This document shows, piece by piece, positions 5,061 through 25,226 of a stretch of 25,240 nt of DNA; the first letter of the stretch is position 1, and each line of letters begins with the position of its first letter. The notes beneath the pieces are model-generated. The model saw only the letters and a program-made list of their open reading frames with translations, did no database searches and was not told the DNA's origin. The position numbers were made by a program, and so were the translations under genes. Source of the stretch: a virus (Duplodnaviria > Caudoviricetes); the IMG/VR virus record IMGVR_UViG_3300032216_000801, positions 1 to 25,240 of that record; one strand, written 5' to 3'.

Positions 5061-5888
5061 TTATCTAGCGTTGATTAGCTGACTTACGTCACCTTCAAAA
5101 GTATAACTACCCACATGGTTAAGTTTAGTATTAGGATCTAACCAAATCTCTCCACCAAGTTTTTGCCAACGACGGCAGAAAGTATAGTCTTCTGATAAGT
5201 ACCGATTATCATCTGGATCTAAGATAGTATCAAATAGGGCATAACAATGCTTATTAAGTTTAGGATCAATATTAGAATCATTCCTATAGTGAAGCTCAGG
5301 GTGAGCTTTAACCATTTTTTCAATTGTTTCTCGCTTGATTAGGAAGAAACCTGTAGAAGCATCTAGAACCTCTACTGCTCCGTTTTCTACACGAATTTGT
5401 CTAGTCTCAGGATCTACAAACTTAAAGTTAATAGCATACTGAATTGGTAGAGCTTTTTTAGGATAAGCTCCTGCCATAATAGGTTTATCATAAGCTAGAG
5501 CTCGAAGCATATCTTCTGGTTGGAACTCAATATCTGAGTCAATAAACATAAGATGTGTGCAGTCGCTATCTAGAAACATAGCAGTAAGTATATTTCTTGC
5601 TCTAGTAATTAAGCTCTCATTACGAAGAGTAGTAATTCTAAAGTTAATCCCATGTTGCATAAATACTTGCGACATTTTAAACATACTTAAAAAGTACTGA
5701 TCTGTCAGCATACCGCCATAGCATGGCGTAGCAAAGAACACATTATGTTTTCTAAGCATATCTAAGTCAATTATAGCTTTACCTTCGCCTACTGACTTAA
5801 AAGCACCAAAACTTTTACCCTGTACCGGCTCACTATTAGCATTAGTACCTACACCTGATGGTTTAATAGTTGATAGTGGCTTTTTCAT
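5061..5888 (-). CDS. GT-A fold glycosyltransferase-like protein
   Basis: VFFATPCYGG, ESLITRARN, THLMFIDSDI (DxD), AGAYPKK, TGFFLIKR, YLSEDYTFCRRW, NHVG; the start overlaps the D11 stop (ATGA). Confidence 0.85.
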   Translation of the reverse strand: MKKPLSTIKPSGVGTNANSEPVQGKSFGAFKSVGEGKAIIDLDMLRKHNVFFATPCYGGMLTDQYFLSMFKMSQVFMQHGINFRITTLRNESLITRARNILTAMFLDSDCTHLMFIDSDIEFQPEDMLRALAYDKPIMAGAYPKKALPIQYAINFKFVDPETRQIRVENGAVEVLDASTGFFLIKRETIEKMVKAHPELHYRNDSNIDPKLNKHCYALFDTILDPDDNRYLSEDYTFCRRWQKLGGEIWLDPNTKLNHVGSYTFEGDVSQLINAR

Positions 5889-17781: not shown

Positions 17782-18045
17782 TTACTCCAATTCTAATTCT
17801 AGTTGCGTGCTCCAAACATATCTCTGAGCTACGGCTTCAGCAGCTGATTCTAACAATGGTATTAGTGATGTTACTTCATCAGCTTGAAAAGAAAATCCTG
17901 TTTTAGTGGGGTACCATTGACCGGTATCCCCATCCATTGCATATTCTCTAATATGTAAATAAGTAATATCTCTAAACTCGTTTAGAGTTACTTTAACAGC
18001 ATTTCCATTATATTTATGAAAAGCGGTTCCAAAGTCTATATTCAT
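17782..18045 (-). CDS. PC4/p15-like ssDNA-binding protein
   Basis: VKVTLNEFRDITYLHIREY...WYPTKTGFSF is the PC4-fold signature; also present near the ligase in T5. Confidence 0.88.
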   Translation of the reverse strand: MNIDFGTAFHKYNGNAVKVTLNEFRDITYLHIREYAMDGDTGQWYPTKTGFSFQADEVTSLIPLLESAAEAVAQRYVWSTQLELELE

Positions 18046-19205
18046 TATTTTAATCTATTAGCTGTTCTACTAGCTATAGATGTAAATATATCTAAGTATT
18101 GTTTTGCTACAGCTTCCCACGTATTACGTGTTTCTGTAAATCTAGCTTTTACTAAAATAGTTTCTCTATCATGGCTATGATATATATATTTCATAGCTTT
18201 TAGTAAATATTCTGGGTTTGGTTCTTTTATAAACGTATGCGTACTCATCATAGTAGTAGCATCACCAGGTTTAAGAGCAAATAGGTGATTATCTTCAATG
18301 TTAACTGGTACATTAGCTACAGGAATTCTAAAACCTTTATCTTTAGGTATAAAGTCTTCTGTAGGACCTTCAGCAGATATAATAGGTACACAGCCACAAG
18401 CCATGGCTTCTTGTATATGCATACCAAAACCCTCAGCTCTGTATGGGTGTACTAAAACTTTACTAGCCTTATATATGTCAGACATTTCTGTAGAAGATAA
18501 CTCATCGTCAATATATATAATTTCACCACAATCGGTTTGATACTGTATTTTAATTATTTCAGATAGCAGATTAGACTGACCATAGATTCTGGGATTATCT
18601 TTTATAATTAACTTAGCATTATCTGATCTACTAAATGCTTTTGACCAAGCATTTATAAGTATATCTAAGCCTTTTCTCCACTGAGAGTTACCTACATATA
18701 CAAAGTTTACCTTATCAGGGTTTATACCAAATTTATTTACACTACCGCCTGGCTCTGTATTAAATACTTTATCATCATACCCATTAGGCACAACAAATAA
18801 ATTATCAGGACGTAAACCCCCATTGCTGAATACATTTTTACAATAGTTACTAGGAACTATCAATGCGTCGGCAAATGTTTCAAATTTATACTGCCATTCA
18901 AATAGTGCTTTTGAGTATTCCCATGGTTGAATGTATATTATTTTTGTGTGTTCACTAACAGGCCATGACCAAATAGGTGGATAGCTATGACGTATCTGAA
19001 CATCAGGAATTACATCTTCATTTAATTTTTCTAGACTCTTTAAAACTCTAACTTCGGACTTATCTAAAGCATACAAGGGATCATAAGAATCTAAAGGTAT
19101 AATACGTATATCTATCCCTAGTTTAACTAGTTGTAGTATTATATTCCTATTCACTATACTTAAAGAGTGATTATCGTAAAACTTACCAATAAACTCTATG
19201 AACAT
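18045..19205 (-). CDS. GT-B fold glycosyltransferase, family GT4
   Basis: VVPNGYD, FVYVGNSQWRKGLDIL, HPYRAEGFGMHIQEAMACG (EX7E), TWEAVAKQY. Confidence 0.92.
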   Translation of the reverse strand: MFIEFIGKFYDNHSLSIVNRNIILQLVKLGIDIRIIPLDSYDPLYALDKSEVRVLKSLEKLNEDVIPDVQIRHSYPPIWSWPVSEHTKIIYIQPWEYSKALFEWQYKFETFADALIVPSNYCKNVFSNGGLRPDNLFVVPNGYDDKVFNTEPGGSVNKFGINPDKVNFVYVGNSQWRKGLDILINAWSKAFSRSDNAKLIIKDNPRIYGQSNLLSEIIKIQYQTDCGEIIYIDDELSSTEMSDIYKASKVLVHPYRAEGFGMHIQEAMACGCVPIISAEGPTEDFIPKDKGFRIPVANVPVNIEDNHLFALKPGDATTMMSTHTFIKEPNPEYLLKAMKYIYHSHDRETILVKARFTETRNTWEAVAKQYLDIFTSIASRTANRLK

Positions 19206-20032
19206 TATTTAACTCTTTCTAAATGCTGTAAGTAATAACTTTCTAATTGGTTTTTAGGTACAGCAAATAGCTTAGGCCATTGCGCACTACCCAATCCTGA
19301 AGTTTTAAAATTGCGTAACTCTGTATAGTTGTCTAAAGCAACTTGGTCCCATATTTTATAAAATGGATCACTTTCTACTATATCTGAGTGTCCTATGTTA
19401 TGTATTTTCTCATGTAGATCAGCTTTATCACGGCATAGACTCCAGTGTAATGCTACTAGAGGGCTTTGTACTCTGTTAGCTCCACCAGCACTAAGATTAG
19501 ACCATCTAGCATATGTAAATGTATTATTCTTATGAGTCATGACTCCTTGGTTTTCACCAAAGAATGGTGTGTTATCTTCATTTGCTATAACTAATACAGT
19601 ATCATCAATAATTTTATATGGGGTAGCCCATATCATACATACATCTACTTTACTAGCATACCTGCTAACTACGGGACAAAAAGAGTTAAAAAAATCTTTT
19701 GCGTTAAGTAGCTGTTCGTCAGCATCAATACTTATTATCCAGTCATTGCTACAATGACTCTTTAAAAAATTACGCTCATAGTTATCATTTTCAATGGCTA
19801 TAGTAGATTTGTGAAAATTATCTTCTATAATTGATATTTTACCATCAGTATCTATACTCTGTAATTCTTCCCATAGTTTTGACTCATCAAACTTAAAATT
19901 GTTACCACTCCAAGTAATTCTAGATTCATCTAAACCTAAAACTATTTCATCTACATACTTATAGTATTTACTTATGCTACTAGCTAGATAGTGTGCGTCA
20001 TAGCTTATTAAACTTATAGCACTTATATTCAT
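19205..20032 (-). CDS. GT-A fold glycosyltransferase, GT2-like
   Basis: VDEIVLGLD, ERNFLKSHCSNDWIISIDADE (DxD), ALHWS. Confidence 0.82.
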   Translation of the reverse strand: MNISAISLISYDAHYLASSISKYYKYVDEIVLGLDESRITWSGNNFKFDESKLWEELQSIDTDGKISIIEDNFHKSTIAIENDNYERNFLKSHCSNDWIISIDADEQLLNAKDFFNSFCPVVSRYASKVDVCMIWATPYKIIDDTVLVIANEDNTPFFGENQGVMTHKNNTFTYARWSNLSAGGANRVQSPLVALHWSLCRDKADLHEKIHNIGHSDIVESDPFYKIWDQVALDNYTELRNFKTSGLGSAQWPKLFAVPKNQLESYYLQHLERVK

Positions 20033-20754
20033 TAAGTAGTTGCTTTCTCTATTTTAGCTATTTTCTTTTTTATACTTATAATAAGTAATCCAGATTGGTA
20101 CTGAGTATGATCACTTAATCCGCCAGAAACTCTTTGTTTTTTCCACTCAACCTCAAACTTATTAGCGTTATCTGCTATTACTTCGTCTAGTTCTTTTGCG
20201 TTTTTTACGTTAGAGTAGTTAGAGAATATAATAACAGCTTCTGAGCTCAGTGCTTTATATACAGTACTAAAGAACGCTTCATATGTTTCTTTATTAGCAG
20301 GTGTTATATCAAAGTAGCATACATCAAACTTAGGTTGACTTTTCCAATCTACATCTTGAAAATTGTTTTCAATTATATTAATGTTATTAATATTTACTGC
20401 GCTTGTTGGTTCATTATATCTTTGAATATTAGCAGCTAATTGACTTTTCATATTCTCCCATATAGTACCCTCTGGAGCAGTACGTTTTGGCTCACGTTCG
20501 TCATATGAATAATTCTCTACTCCTACTAGTTTAGTAGTAGGATTACCATACGCAGCGCTTATGATGGTAGATCCTTTATATACTCCTAGCTCTAAGTAAT
20601 TAGTACCTTCCTTAGAGCATATGTTATTAATTAATGCTTTAAGTCTTGGAGAACTTATACCAAATAAGTCTCTTTCACGTTCGCTAATTTTAGACTGCCC
20701 GTTATCAGATAGCTCTAATACAGCAGTAACAAATTCTTGTGTTAGTTTAACCAT
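20032..20754 (-). CDS. Class I SAM-dependent methyltransferase (Methyltransf_24-like, often sugar O-methylation)
   Basis: Motif I YLELGVYKGST, LVGVEN, FDVCYFD; no DPPY/NPPY or PC motif of DNA methylases; SD AAGGA. Confidence 0.82.
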   Translation of the reverse strand: MVKLTQEFVTAVLELSDNGQSKISERERDLFGISSPRLKALINNICSKEGTNYLELGVYKGSTIISAAYGNPTTKLVGVENYSYDEREPKRTAPEGTIWENMKSQLAANIQRYNEPTSAVNINNINIIENNFQDVDWKSQPKFDVCYFDITPANKETYEAFFSTVYKALSSEAVIIFSNYSNVKNAKELDEVIADNANKFEVEWKKQRVSGGLSDHTQYQSGLLIISIKKKIAKIEKATT

Positions 20755-20781
20755 TTTATTATCCTTATTTATATAGATATT

Positions 20782-21525
20782 TTAACTATATTTAATTTCT
20801 TTGTCCAGAGTTTTATAAAATTGTGAATTAGACCATTTGGTCTGTAGAGTAGATAGATTTCTCATTTCAGCAGCAGCTTTGTTGGTATCTCTGGCTTTTA
20901 TTTGTTTATTGTCTCTAGATTCGTGGTGAAATAATCTAACGGGGATCTGGTAGATTGCCTCTCCAGCTTTCCTAGCTGTAAGACAAAAATCTACATCTCT
21001 GTTATATGTCCACTCATACTCTGGTGAAAAGCTTCCAACGGCATTGATGAAACGTCGTCGAAGAAAACAACCTCCAAACGTTGTCCATGCAACTTCTCGG
21101 ACTTTCTGGTACTGATCTTTATCACTTTCCAGTTCTGATTTAAATGTAGCGCCGTTTTCAAGGATGATACCGCTACCGTAATGATCCGGCCTATTATTGG
21201 TAAATTTTCCGCCTGCGGATTGGATGAAAAAGTCACCGTTATCATCCGTTGCGGGGTACAATAGCAAGCAACCAAACATTCCTGCTTCTGGGTATTTTTT
21301 GACATATTCTAAAACTTCCTCAAACCAACCATCGTGGTGTGGTGTCATGTCTGAATGAAGAATAAATATATCTTCTTCAGGAAATTTACGCCACATCTTT
21401 TCAAACATTAGATCAGAGCCAATACCTCCAGTATCTAGTTCATAATAAACATCATATTCCCAAAATAACTGTTTATGCACAGCTATTTCTTGTTCATTTA
21501 TATATGGAGTAATTATTTTGACCAT
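20782..21525 (-). CDS. GT2-family glycosyltransferase
   Basis: KIITPY, FILHSD, GCLLLYP...IQSAGG, VAWTTFGGCFLRR, DVDFCLTARKAG, LFHHES. Confidence 0.88.
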   Translation of the reverse strand: MVKIITPYINEQEIAVHKQLFWEYDVYYELDTGGIGSDLMFEKMWRKFPEEDIFILHSDMTPHHDGWFEEVLEYVKKYPEAGMFGCLLLYPATDDNGDFFIQSAGGKFTNNRPDHYGSGIILENGATFKSELESDKDQYQKVREVAWTTFGGCFLRRRFINAVGSFSPEYEWTYNRDVDFCLTARKAGEAIYQIPVRLFHHESRDNKQIKARDTNKAAAEMRNLSTLQTKWSNSQFYKTLDKEIKYS

Positions 21526-22529
21526 TAAATTAACTGTTGAGTCCAGGTTTTAGGGGTTTTATCTGTAATTAATTCAAGAGGTAAGTGATATTTAAACTCT
21601 CTTACTCGTGGTTTAATCCATTGAACCATGTGATGAATTGTCTGCTCTACTGTTATATCTGCACTATAATTAAACTCTCTACGAATTTTATCACTAGAGC
21701 AATAAGCATTTTTTACTTCTATAGGTCTATCAGGATAGTGTTCAAATCTAGGTTCTACATTAGCTTCTTTACATACTATATTAGCTAACTGTTTAATAGA
21801 TATTTCATTATGATCAGGCCCTATATTATATACTTGACCAGATAAATCTCTATCGCTTAGCATAATTTTTTCAATAGCTTTTATACAGTCAATTGCATTA
21901 GAAAATGATCGTTTTTGCTCACCGTCACCATATACTATTACAGGCTTGCCTTGTAAAGTTCTATTTATCATAATTCCTACTACATTTCTAAAAGGGTCAA
22001 AATAACGTTGACCAATTCCTATAACATTGTGTGGAACTACTGTAACATAGTTTAACCCATGAATTTTTGATAATAAAGCAAGATGTTGTTCTGCTTGTAC
22101 TTTAGCTAATCCGTAGGGGTCTACTGGTTTAGGGTTCATATCTTCTGTAAACGGCGGAGTTTGATCACCATAACGAGCCATAGAGCTACAATTAATTAAT
22201 AATCTTACGTTATTGTGTAGGGCTGCAACAGCTACAGACAGCGTACCAGATACAATACTAGTAGCAGTAATTGTAGGAGAAAATACACTCAAACCCTCAT
22301 AAGGAAGTGCAGCTGCATGAAATACAACATCTGCCTCTTGCATTACTGACTTTAATAACTCTGTATCAGTAATATCTCCTTGATAATAAATAGCGTCTTT
22401 TGGTACGTTATCTTCTACACCACCAATACCGTTATCAATACCTATAACTTCATAACCACCTTTAGCTAATAGATACTTAGCTAAGGTACTACCTAATAAT
22501 CCTGATATACCTGTTATAAAAACTTTCAT
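21525..22529 (-). CDS. NAD-dependent NDP-sugar epimerase/dehydratase (extended SDR)
   Basis: TGISGLLG (GxxGxxG), VFHAAA, SSMARYG, YGLAK (YxxxK), NVIG, YGDGEQKRSF, VYNIG. Confidence 0.93.
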   Translation of the reverse strand: MKVFITGISGLLGSTLAKYLLAKGGYEVIGIDNGIGGVEDNVPKDAIYYQGDITDTELLKSVMQEADVVFHAAALPYEGLSVFSPTITATSIVSGTLSVAVAALHNNVRLLINCSSMARYGDQTPPFTEDMNPKPVDPYGLAKVQAEQHLALLSKIHGLNYVTVVPHNVIGIGQRYFDPFRNVVGIMINRTLQGKPVIVYGDGEQKRSFSNAIDCIKAIEKIMLSDRDLSGQVYNIGPDHNEISIKQLANIVCKEANVEPRFEHYPDRPIEVKNAYCSSDKIRREFNYSADITVEQTIHHMVQWIKPRVREFKYHLPLELITDKTPKTWTQQLI

Positions 22530-23317
22530 CGGTTATTCTCTTCGTTTAAATACTGCTTAGCCAAGTTATACCAGTCTACATAAGGAGCTATACAGTTATT
22601 TTGTAAATGTGTAGACCAGCCTGGAATAGGAGTTAACGCTTTTACCATTTTAAAAGCTCTCCAAGTCCAGCCATCATCAGCAAATACACTAGCTTTTAAA
22701 ATATCATATTTAAAATGTAGCCATACTTTACCCGTAGCTAATAGTGTAGGAGTAGCTGACTGCACAGTACGCATATATCCAAATTTAGTTAAGTATAGCT
22801 CAGTATTTCTAGTGTTATCCATATAGGAGTCGGGATAATCTTGTGGTACAAAGAACCCGTCATAGCCATCTGCATACAGTTCTTTAATCTGAGCTATAGC
22901 ATTAGGCATATGCAGATAGTCATCATTAGCTAAGTAATATAGATCATCAGGATTTTTTTCTATAACTTCCATCATATATACATACTGAGGTATAAAATGA
23001 TTTATGCGTATTTCACAAAACTCTGGATAAGGATGTTTACCATATGGTGGAGTAAATTGATCTATACTAGGAATTTCTTCTACTATTAGCTGAGTTTTAC
23101 AAGTTTTTCTTAACCATGCCATTGTTTCTTCTGTTACAGCAGCAGCTAATAAATGTATTGTATCAGTCTTATCTAATCCTATCTGAAATGATAGCCAACA
23201 GCTTTTTAAAATATCGAGCTTACTTAGGTCCATAAACCTACTAGCTACCGGCGCCATGTCTTTATTTACGCTAATAGGAGAATTATTAGCTTCAGAAACC
23301 ATATAAAATATGTGCAT
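22526..23317 (-). CDS. Putative divergent GT-A fold glycosyltransferase
   Basis: LYYLANDDYLH (DD after a hydrophobic strand), DYPDSY, TPIPGWSTH; embedded in a glycan cluster. Confidence 0.6.
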   Translation of the reverse strand: MHIFYMVSEANNSPISVNKDMAPVASRFMDLSKLDILKSCWLSFQIGLDKTDTIHLLAAAVTEETMAWLRKTCKTQLIVEEIPSIDQFTPPYGKHPYPEFCEIRINHFIPQYVYMMEVIEKNPDDLYYLANDDYLHMPNAIAQIKELYADGYDGFFVPQDYPDSYMDNTRNTELYLTKFGYMRTVQSATPTLLATGKVWLHFKYDILKASVFADDGWTWRAFKMVKALTPIPGWSTHLQNNCIAPYVDWYNLAKQYLNEENNR

Positions 23318-23326
23318 TATATACCT

Positions 23327-23947
23327 TTATCTATTTATTTTTAAAATTATACCAGATTGAAATAGTTCATTGTCATTTATATTATCAAATACGCATTCAC
23401 CAGCACTAATCATATTATCACTACCTATATTTACTTTTTCAGTAATTATACTATTTGGTTGTAATATGTTGTTATTACCAATAATACATTGATTCATAAT
23501 TCCTGCATATGGTTGAATTATATTATGATTACCTATTTTACACCTATTATGTACACTAGAGTAAGAACTAAATGAATTAAAATTGCCTATATTGGCTATA
23601 CCTTGTATAGAGCTAAAAGGTAAGAATAGATTACCTACTCCTAATATACTTGTTGCAGATATGTGTGAACTATCAGAATATATATTTGGAAAATGTGTTT
23701 TTATAGGCTCATACGTTTTTAAAAAATAACTAAGTAATTTATGACGCCATACAGTATTTTGAGTACCTACTATAAAAGCGGCATAAGGATCATGCTTAAA
23801 AGGGTATATACCTTCTTCACTAATGATAAAAGCCTTATCACCATTTAAAGTGATAAAGCCACAAAACTTGTACTTATTATTTTTTAGAAATATATGATCG
23901 AATACTTCGTTGGCAAATCCGCCGTTTCCTAGTATATATAAATTCAT
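23327..23947 (-). CDS. PglD/NeuD-like sugar acetyltransferase (left-handed beta-helix)
   Basis: N-terminal ILGNGGFANEV Rossmann-like segment followed by hexapeptide repeats (LGVGN, IGNFN, IGNHN, IGNNN, IGSDN). Confidence 0.82.
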   Translation of the reverse strand: MNLYILGNGGFANEVFDHIFLKNNKYKFCGFITLNGDKAFIISEEGIYPFKHDPYAAFIVGTQNTVWRHKLLSYFLKTYEPIKTHFPNIYSDSSHISATSILGVGNLFLPFSSIQGIANIGNFNSFSSYSSVHNRCKIGNHNIIQPYAGIMNQCIIGNNNILQPNSIITEKVNIGSDNMISAGECVFDNINDNELFQSGIILKINR

Positions 23948-24387: not shown

Positions 24388-24408
24388 ATTATTCTCATTT
24401 ATAAGTTA

Positions 24409-24580
24409 ATGGCCCGTTCTGTTTCAAGGTGGAACCATACCCAACGGCATTAAGCTGCTAGAGCGTAAGCCATAGGTGCTGAATTTTCATTTGCACTTAT
24501 CATTTTTCTTGCGGTTACAGTCGCTTGCTCACTGGCTCCTGGTTTCCTCGTACTCAACATGTCGAACCTATTTCGCCCCC
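24409..24580 (-). ncRNA. ssrA: tmRNA coding piece (5' acceptor strand plus tag ORF) of a circularly permuted two-piece tmRNA
   Basis: Begins GGGGGCGAAATAGGTTCGAC at 24580. ATAAGT precedes the resume codon; tag 24494-24450 is GCA AAT GAA AAT TCA GCA CCT ATG GCT TAC GCT CTA GCA GCT TAA = ANENSAPMAYALAA*. 3' structure ATGGTTC/GGGCCAT encloses CCTTGAAACAGAA. The 3' end is approximate. Confidence 0.95.
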
Positions 24581-24581
24581 A

Positions 24582-24794
24582 TCAAGAAGATTCTTTTGGT
24601 ACGTTGTAAGGTTTACCTTGAAATCTTTTATTCCAAGCTTTTCCTAAACTACCGTCTTCTCTTCCAGAATAAATAATAGTATATACGCCATTATTTGTTT
24701 GTTTATATGCTAAATCTACATTAGATATATTACTATCATGTTTCATATTAGCAGCTAATAAGGCTTTTTTACTAATTTTTATCTTTTTAGACAT
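24582..24794 (-). CDS. 70-aa basic hypothetical protein nested in the tmRNA intervening segment
   Basis: MSKKIKISKK...VPKESS*; SD AAGGA 5 nt upstream of ATG 24794; occupies 213 of the 225-nt segment; stop TGA lies 1 nt before tmRNA G1. Confidence 0.7.
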   Translation of the reverse strand: MSKKIKISKKALLAANMKHDSNISNVDLAYKQTNNGVYTIIYSGREDGSLGKAWNKRFQGKPYNVPKESS

Positions 24795-24805
24795 AAGAAT
24801 CCTTG

Positions 24806-24868
24806 TGGTGGAGGCGTCCGGTATCGCACCGGAGTCCATGCTGCATCTAATTTACGTAATCAGAGCTC
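24806..24868 (-). ncRNA. ssrA: tmRNA acceptor piece (T-arm, 3' acceptor strand, CCA)
   Basis: ...CAGCATG GAC TCCGG-TGCGATA-CCGGA CGCCTCC A CCA ends at 24806. CGCCTCC pairs with GGGGGCG, including the G3.U Ala determinant; discriminator A; CAGCATG pairs with CATGTTG of the coding piece. The 5' end is approximate. Confidence 0.93.
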
Positions 24869-25000
24869 TTCTATAATTTCAATAGTTGGTTCTTCAACTA
24901 CTAGTTCTGGTAAGTTTTCTACAGCTGCTCGTAGAACTGAAAAGTCTATATCATCAGTTTCAACTAGCACATAGTATTCAGTTAAGGTTGTTCTGGTCAA
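24860..25000 (-). CDS. Small acidic hypothetical protein, 46 aa (below the ORF-track cutoff)
   Basis: TTG start with AGGT 5 nt upstream; MTRTTLTEYYVLVETDDIDFSVLRAAVENLPELVVEEPTIEIIEEL*; codon use (CTA, GTA, GAA) like neighbours; fills the gap exactly. Confidence 0.55.
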   Translation of the reverse strand: MTRTTLTEYYVLVETDDIDFSVLRAAVENLPELVVEEPTIEIIEEL

Positions 25001-25226
25001 GACGTACCTGTTCTAGATGGCCTGTATGTGTAGACCAGTTAAAAATACGAAAAGCATTTTCTTCTAGATCCCACACCAGTTCCATACCATCAGGATAACT
25101 CTTTTCAGAGCCAGAGCCTATAATTTTTTCATCTAAGAAAGTATCAGGCAAATCTCGTAGATGTGCAAACAGCATTTCACGAATTTCGCCATTACGTTTT
25201 TTAAAAGTTCCTTTGAACGCTTTCAT
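24978..25226 (-). CDS. DUF2693/WYL-like SH3 beta-barrel small protein
   Basis: FKKRNGEIREM...LVWDLEENAFRIFNW signature; strong SD GGAGG. Confidence 0.75.
   Translation of the reverse strand: MKAFKGTFKKRNGEIREMLFAHLRDLPDTFLDEKIIGSGSEKSYPDGMELVWDLEENAFRIFNWSTHTGHLEQVRLDQNNLN

Follow-up and report, generated by a model that had tools for sequence, protein, structure and literature searches.

Can the segment that is cut out of a tmRNA precursor also be a gene? The question is raised by the window, the whole stretch of DNA analysed here (25,240 nt of a virus of the Caudoviricetes, IMG/VR record IMGVR_UViG_3300032216_000801), whose minus strand carries a permuted two-piece tmRNA gene. The acceptor piece lies 5' of the coding piece, and the 225-nt intervening segment (IVS) between them contains a frame of 70 codons. 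In permuted tmRNA genes segments of this kind are regarded as throwaway linkers, and annotation leaves their contents invisible; in the record of phage Melnitz, for example, no CDS is listed in the IVS despite an SD-led frame.

The permuted tmRNA that the initial annotation had recognized around a 225-nt segment was confirmed by ARAGORN, which calls a permuted tmRNA at the locus, and by two Rfam models, RF04321 with 96 bits (gathering 47) and RF01849 with 55.7 bits (gathering 50), both of which treat the IVS as an insertion. The gene has a 7-bp acceptor stem with a G3-U70 pair, A73, CCA, a T arm and a tag frame, ANENSAPMAYALAA-stop, with a hydrophobic AA-stop end, and its stems show compensatory changes against those of a related locus, L001. 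It is a permuted phage tmRNA of the alphaproteobacterial type. On the minus strand the acceptor strand CGCCTCC (24816-24810) is followed by the discriminator A (24809) and CCA (24808-24806); the IVS (24805-24581) contains an SD-like AAGGA (24804-24800), ATG (24794) and TGA (24584-24582), after which comes G1 (24580). The features of the locus are as follows.

24978..25226, minus strand: 82-aa ORF, the gene 5' of the tmRNA, with a weak WYL_2/Sm-like match (Pfam PF10902, E 6.5e-4, under the curated cut-off)
24860..25000, minus strand: 46-aa ORF with a TTG start, whose stop lies within the first bases of the modelled acceptor piece
24806..24867, minus strand: tmRNA acceptor piece, consisting of P2 strand, T arm, acceptor 3' strand, A73 and encoded CCA (5' limit from the Rfam model)
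24581..24805, minus strand: IVS (cargo slot), 225 nt
24795..24803, minus strand: 5' arm of the closing stem of the IVS, overlapping the SD-like AAGGA; the 9-bp arm is identical in L001
24582..24794, minus strand: 70-aa basic orphan ORF (P0001), without known family
24587..24595, minus strand: 3' arm of the closing stem as predicted by folding, formed by the last codons of the 70-aa ORF
24581..24584, minus strand: TGAT motif closing the IVS, whose TGA is the stop of the ORF; pairing with ACCA at the end of the acceptor piece is predicted
24408..24580, minus strand: tmRNA coding piece from G1 (GGGGGCG, G3-U70 pair; 3' limit from the RF01849 model)
24450..24494, minus strand: tag reading frame ANENSAPMAYALAA-stop; the same tag is called in L001
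23962..24387, minus strand: 141-aa ORF 3' of the tmRNA; L001 has another gene after its tmRNA

The order of acceptor piece, IVS and coding piece, the G3-U70 pair, A73-CCA and an ALAA-ended tag are shared with known permuted tmRNAs (RF04321, RF01849; phage Melnitz, PMC9004378), from which the window differs in that its IVS, of 225 nt, holds a likely protein-coding frame. A group I intron or homing endonuclease in the tmRNA was considered and rejected, as the T arm is intact and the insert sits between CCA and G1. Only two Rfam matches were found in the window, and the ORF is without a domain match.

The 70-codon ORF is probably a real coding gene. The SD-led frame noticed initially does fill the IVS, and its length exceeds chance: among 20,000 dinucleotide shuffles of the IVS none contained an ORF of at least 70 aa and 102 one of at least 50 aa. 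At the protein level the P0001 family comprises two 90% clusters with 14 members, 12 of which are 70 aa long and two of which are called from an upstream start. There are no indels across the 70 residues and the length is constant in members down to 86% identity, although intact protein records are a biased sample because gene callers report open frames only. Two metagenome scans yielded no further full DNA alleles of the IVS, so that L001 is the only independent one. Sixteen of the 225 bases of the IVS differ between the window and L001, and the frame, start, SD and stop of the ORF are all retained; when the same changes were placed at random, a stop was introduced in 47% of the trials. Within the ORF seven codons differ synonymously and four non-synonymously. 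The dN/dS of this one DNA pair is 0.19, with P 0.01 in a site-count test and P 0.07 in a simulation with the observed base-change spectrum. Conservation of the ORF, proposed earlier as a check, was thus found for frame, SD and stop, while the codon evidence for selection, from one pair with P 0.01-0.07, is supportive and not conclusive.

Logan contigs contributed a few more letters. Contig X18, from an RNA library, has three ORF differences among those listed, all in third positions; two of the three are also present in L001, so they are not independent support. X3 has one listed ORF difference, S70F. X18 includes a 143-nt piece spanning the ORF end and G1, which was not counted as proof of expression because it may be precursor RNA or DNA. 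The RNA-library material consists of contigs, so coverage gaps over the IVS are uninformative. Upstream of the ORF (24795-24839, minus strand) the frame is open via the acceptor strand and T arm to ATG 24839, and the resulting 85-aa form is present in two database records. We consider this form less likely, as the SD is positioned for the 70-aa start and the upstream site reads TTG in L001.

The 70-aa protein contains 11 Lys and has a pI of 9.9. It belongs to no family in Pfam, NCBIfam or PHROGs, and its best match among PDB sequences, an amidase, has an E-value of 0.6. Its AlphaFold model is poor (pLDDT 53.5, pTM 0.22); Foldseek with this model, a check that had been suggested, returned nothing at E ≤0.001, and the ESM Atlas nothing by features and TM ≤0.44 by structure. 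One true relative was found in a search of 50% representatives, the other 10 matches being long proteins aligned over short stretches, which we rejected as compositional. No match was found in cultured phages and, as weak evidence, no fused or longer form of the protein was found. The suggestion that the Lys-rich product could bind RNA or ribosomes therefore has its composition as sole basis, with no family, structure or fold match. The protein is, we assume, similar in size and charge to ArfA, of which the Pfam, NCBIfam and PHROG libraries presumably include a model. An ArfA-like rescue factor was rejected, as there is no sequence or profile similarity (0 Pfam, NCBIfam and PHROG families). 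ArfA, a tmRNA-regulated ribosome rescue factor, is likewise a small protein, functionally tied to tmRNA in the account covered in PMC3985003, and the 70-aa protein has no profile or solved-structure match to it. The 70-aa ORF would also not become non-stop by processing, because its stop (24584-24582) is inside the IVS. Most likely the product is one of the ordinary small accessory proteins of phages and not specially connected with trans-translation.

In order to see what relatives carry at the same site, syntenic loci were collected via the upstream 82-aa gene, which gave 17 loci, eight of them with a permuted tmRNA nearby. One (L002) is on the same contig as L001. The spacers at the others measure 99 nt (L003), 104 nt (L004), 174 nt (L008), 238 nt (L009), 33 nt (L012) and 217 nt (L013 and L018). 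A clade motif scan returned five loci, newly L378, whose spacer, as read from the printed sequence, has 13 nt, and L380, with 99 nt. Same-site spacers are thus 99 nt in L003 and L380, 104 nt in L004 and L379 and 13 nt in L378; those of 99 and 104 nt have no long ORF and are each closed by a stem of their own. Altogether the alternatives at the IVS site of the window span 13-238 nt. In Logan contig X6, where the coding piece differs at 3 of 176 bases, the spacer is about 94 nt, and 89 other letters replace 220 with the junction exactly at CCA; contig X8 has the same junction.

The tRNA-like core varies separately. Between the window and L001, 9 of 62 bases of the acceptor piece differ, as do 8 of the first 40 bases of the coding piece, with compensatory pairs; the following 130 bases have a single difference. 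L001 agrees with L003 in its T arm and acceptor stem, and the window agrees with L004 in its P2 strands; L003 and L004 both carry other spacers. The IVS is shared while the cores differ and match loci with other spacers; spacer and tRNA-like core have therefore been reassorted, and the gene swapping proposed as a check is observed, since relatives carry other spacers at the same site. L378 also has a Cys-rich ORF, HNH-like by eye, just 5' of its tmRNA, and the context of a 16S-like minimal acceptor piece, unlike the window.

Is the window a special case? A viral sample drawn by G1 motif alone (120 of about 1,400 loci) yielded 115 parsed IVSs with a median of 80 nt; 24 are at least 148 nt long, 21 with a filling ORF, defined as a sense ORF over at least 65% of the IVS. 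The same motif in prokaryotic genomes (120 loci, 105 IVSs parsed) gave a median of 30 nt, a maximum of 139 nt, from which a 497-nt parsing error was left out, and a filling ORF in 0 of 105. The initial view that the segment is usually short and non-coding is therefore right for bacteria; it misses that the slot is a general place for cargo in phages. Length-selected scans, the last covering 120 of about 160 loci with a target of ≤271 nt, led to 154 unique viral IVSs of at least 148 nt; in one of these scans 97 of 119 loci, for the most part chance matches to the pattern, did not parse as tmRNA and were left out. Of the 154, 113 have a filling sense ORF; nine have one in antisense, and shuffles lead one to expect 9.5. 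There is redundancy by family in the set, which forms 33 BLAST groups, 17 with more than one member and the largest with 44.

Of 15 cargo groups with usable pairs, 12 have a dN/dS of 0.02-0.58, one has 1.66, probably from the wrong frame, and two are uninformative. When 21 other cargo representatives were scanned, one was over the Pfam cut-off (DUF6356) and one had a PHROG match at 1e-5. Eight cargo groups are found next to tmRNA genes outside the IVS as well, in one case immediately 5' of Melnitz ssrA; outside-IVS matches of groups 0 and 3 were left out, the listed ones being loci whose IVS the parser had missed. That the phage IVS is a general cargo slot for many unrelated small genes under selection is well supported. 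As the slot is closed by a stem and holds many such genes, the precursor of a housekeeping RNA likely doubles as mRNA, and small phage genes are being missed.

Borders are common to coding and non-coding spacers. Every one of the 53 viral IVSs of 40-147 nt has an end stem of at least 7 bp, as do 138 of the 154 long ones, versus 14-16% of shuffles; a TGAT end is present in 38 of 67 viral IVSs below 100 nt and 124 of the 154 long ones. In four alphaproteobacterial phages in culture the spacers, of 93-410 nt, are stem-closed and have no filling ORF. Of the two elements that the initial annotation had tied to the ORF, the stem and the TGA before G1, both are present and neither is special to the ORF. 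When frames were allowed to cross G1, 109 of the 154 long IVSs had a closed frame, 34 a frame that runs through and 11 neither. The crossing frames (L021, L022, L089, L394, L422, L565 and others) mostly stop 13 nt into the coding piece, and some are spurious; for such frames a cut at G1 would yield a non-stop message.

How could a gene within the IVS be expressed? The 82-aa ORF, 46-aa ORF, acceptor piece, 70-aa ORF, coding piece and 141-aa ORF form a same-strand run, and the precursor may well be polycistronic. A promoter scan, with 9-of-12 matches as its best (9 found versus 4.5 expected), revealed no convincing promoter for the tmRNA run. The 46-aa ORF (24860-25000, minus strand), which overlaps the end of the 82-aa gene, is open and 78% identical in L001, with a related ORF in L381; its stop inside the acceptor-piece start suggests a polycistronic precursor.

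ViennaRNA predicts a contiguous 9-bp end stem, AGGAUUCUU (24803-24795) with AAGAAUCUU (24595-24587), and pairing of the CCA end with UGAU before G1. The pairing of the IVS ends and the burial of the SD described initially hold in both registers; the bulged register drawn at the time gives way to the contiguous 9-bp one favoured by ViennaRNA. In three nascent folds that stop short of the 3' arm the SD is predicted to be unpaired with a probability of 0.47-0.66, and the opening energy of the start region is 5.3-6.6 kcal/mol; for the full precursor the two values are 0.20 and 10.3 kcal/mol, and for the excised IVS 0.09 and 6.9 kcal/mol. The opening energy in the precursor is the highest of 15 genes tested, the 14 neighbours having 3.0-9.9 kcal/mol, so expression of the 70-aa ORF may be low. 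Similar burial of the SD is predicted in 57 of 83 SD-led cargoes. RNase P and 3' nuclease processing of permuted tmRNA is called probable in the part of PMC3985003 covered, and precursor, acceptor and coding pieces were detected on Orientia Northern blots (PMC7335160, in part).

We consider it likely that the spacer ORF is a real accessory gene, translated from the nascent transcript before processing and exchanged between phages as a cassette. Ribosomes would load on the SD while the IVS is being transcribed. By folding prediction the SD would remain moderately accessible for about 200 nt of further transcription, up to completion of the stem's 3' arm, and be buried thereafter. The closing stem and the tRNA-like domain would then form and tRNA-type processing would remove the IVS, RNase P presumably cutting at G1 and 3' processing freeing CCA, as known biology leads one to expect. 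Because processing removes the IVS, each transcript would give a limited protein dose and then one tmRNA. Recombination within the conserved CCA and TGAT/G1 borders may be how cassettes move. The stem and TGA belong to the design of the tmRNA precursor and are likely borrowed by the cargo genes. As other small genes or non-coding RNA occupy the same slot in relatives, one transcript is likely a messenger and then a tmRNA precursor.

A regulatory switch, in which ribosomes on the ORF keep the closing and acceptor stems open so that translation competes with tmRNA maturation and each sets the output of the other, is in our judgement unlikely. The layout invites it: the SD lies within the 5' arm, the 3' arm and the CCA-pairing motif consist of the final codons and the stop, and a terminating ribosome would be expected to cover G1. 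The buried SDs of 57 of the 83 cargoes and the 34 of 154 long IVSs with a frame through G1, some of them spurious, fit as well. However, the stem is found in all 53 viral IVSs of 40-147 nt as well as in non-coding spacers of relatives and of cultured phages, and the ORF is dispensable at the site, as relatives drop or replace it; competition may be an unavoidable side effect that was not selected. As stem and TGA are common to non-coding phage IVSs, they do not demonstrate a switch, and the dedicated switch put forward initially is possible but unsupported. It is also improbable that the slot couples cargo translation and tmRNA maturation competitively, with the output of the 70-aa protein tied to ribosome traffic and the protein acting on ribosomes or RNA in host takeover.

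We give a similarly small, slightly lower chance to the ORF being a captured gene that has lost its translation and is kept as filler, as excision of the IVS makes it cost-free. Its opening energy, the highest of the 15 start regions, the borderline selection test (P 0.07) and the narrowness of the P0001 family would agree with this, and there is a precedent in the ORF of the 23S rRNA IVS (PMC4990558, in part). Against it, frame, start, SD and stop are kept in L001 where random placement gives a stop in 47% of trials, the length is fixed across members down to 86% identity, and other cargo families are clearly under selection. Least probable is that the excised 225-nt IVS, which contains ORF, SD and stop, persists as a mini-mRNA and is the main template, as had been suggested: although its opening energy drops from 10.3 to 6.9 kcal/mol on excision and the SD would become accessible (P unpaired 0.81) if the final 16 nt were lost, yet at the cost of the stop, the SD is predicted to be most buried in the intact excised piece (P unpaired 0.09), with one base 5' of it, the Orientia blots showed precursor, acceptor and coding pieces (PMC7335160, in part), and the excised 23S IVS is degraded rapidly (PMC4990558, in part).

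We return to the reading of the ORF as an accessory gene translated before processing. With the slot one can test in which order translation and tRNA-type processing take place on a single transcript. Coding segments flanked by the 3' end of a tRNA and by an RNase P site are familiar from mitochondrial tRNA punctuation and from small ORFs between phage tRNA genes. In contrast to these, the borders of the tmRNA slot belong to one tRNA-like fold, which forms only with the coding segment looped out. The 23S rRNA IVS with its S23p ORF is likewise an ORF in a stem-closed segment that is removed during maturation of a structural RNA. According to the portion of PMC4990558 covered, that segment is excised by RNase III and belongs to a single family of selfish elements, whose protein was not detected in vivo, whereas for the tmRNA slot tRNA-type processing is expected and its occupants are many unrelated genes under selection. 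In the modular shuffling of PeSLs in T4-type phages (PMC2839356, in part) small non-essential genes are also recombined via short conserved borders; those borders are repeated promoter-terminator cassettes, while the borders of the tmRNA slot are functional RNA halves, with no repeats or mini-circles implied. In the literature accessible without subscription we found nothing on protein genes in the IVS of permuted tmRNA. In the parts covered of a 2025 database paper (PMC11915505) the named IVS contents are a tRNA-Ala gene and a repeat only, and the terms ORF and open reading are absent from its main text; the passages covered of the Melnitz paper (PMC9004378) are without mention of the IVS.

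The best cultured relatives of the polymerase of the window, among them Proteus phage PM135 (Demerecviridae), are about 40% identical to it, and the order of replication genes is similar; the window is therefore a candidate distant T5-like phage. Its genes were named by reading of the ORFs, and it contains no virion genes. The window thus shows the slot in a probable group of T5-like phages, whose members have reassorted spacer and tRNA-like core. An alpha-type tmRNA was rejected as a guide to the host, as Melnitz has one yet infects OM43 (PMC9004378, in part).

Several further loci deserve mention. Sinorhizobium phage Phosso (PV764938.1, L593:1233-1642), a cultured phage whose host is a model organism, has an unannotated permuted tmRNA with a 410-nt IVS that folds strongly (-166 kcal/mol with borders) and has no filling ORF or Rfam match. 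Melnitz-1 (MZ577095.1, L383:1063-1204) has a 142-nt IVS with an unannotated, SD-led frame of 54 aa that crosses G1 and continues in the coding piece; the IVS part of this frame resembles the L097 cargo by eye. The permuted tmRNA genes of DSS3P8, RcXuper, RcSimone-Hastad and Cp1R7A-A1 (L594-L597) are absent from the record annotation, and in DSS3P8 a GOLLD RNA lies just 5' of the tmRNA. In L411 the parsed IVS is 193 nt and has another GGGGGCG start, preceded by a segment of 96 nt that is closed by a stem; this suggests a duplicated or nested cassette. L390, L430 and L437 carry an open-frame relative of the group-10 cargo but lack ATG, GTG and TTG starts close to the SD-like motif; the cargo may use an unusual start codon or be decaying. 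In the window itself a block of ORFs that by reading alone are glycosyltransferase-, methyltransferase-, sugar epimerase- and acetyltransferase-like adjoins the replication module (18045-23947, minus strand), and one more such ORF is found inside the module (5061-5888, minus strand).
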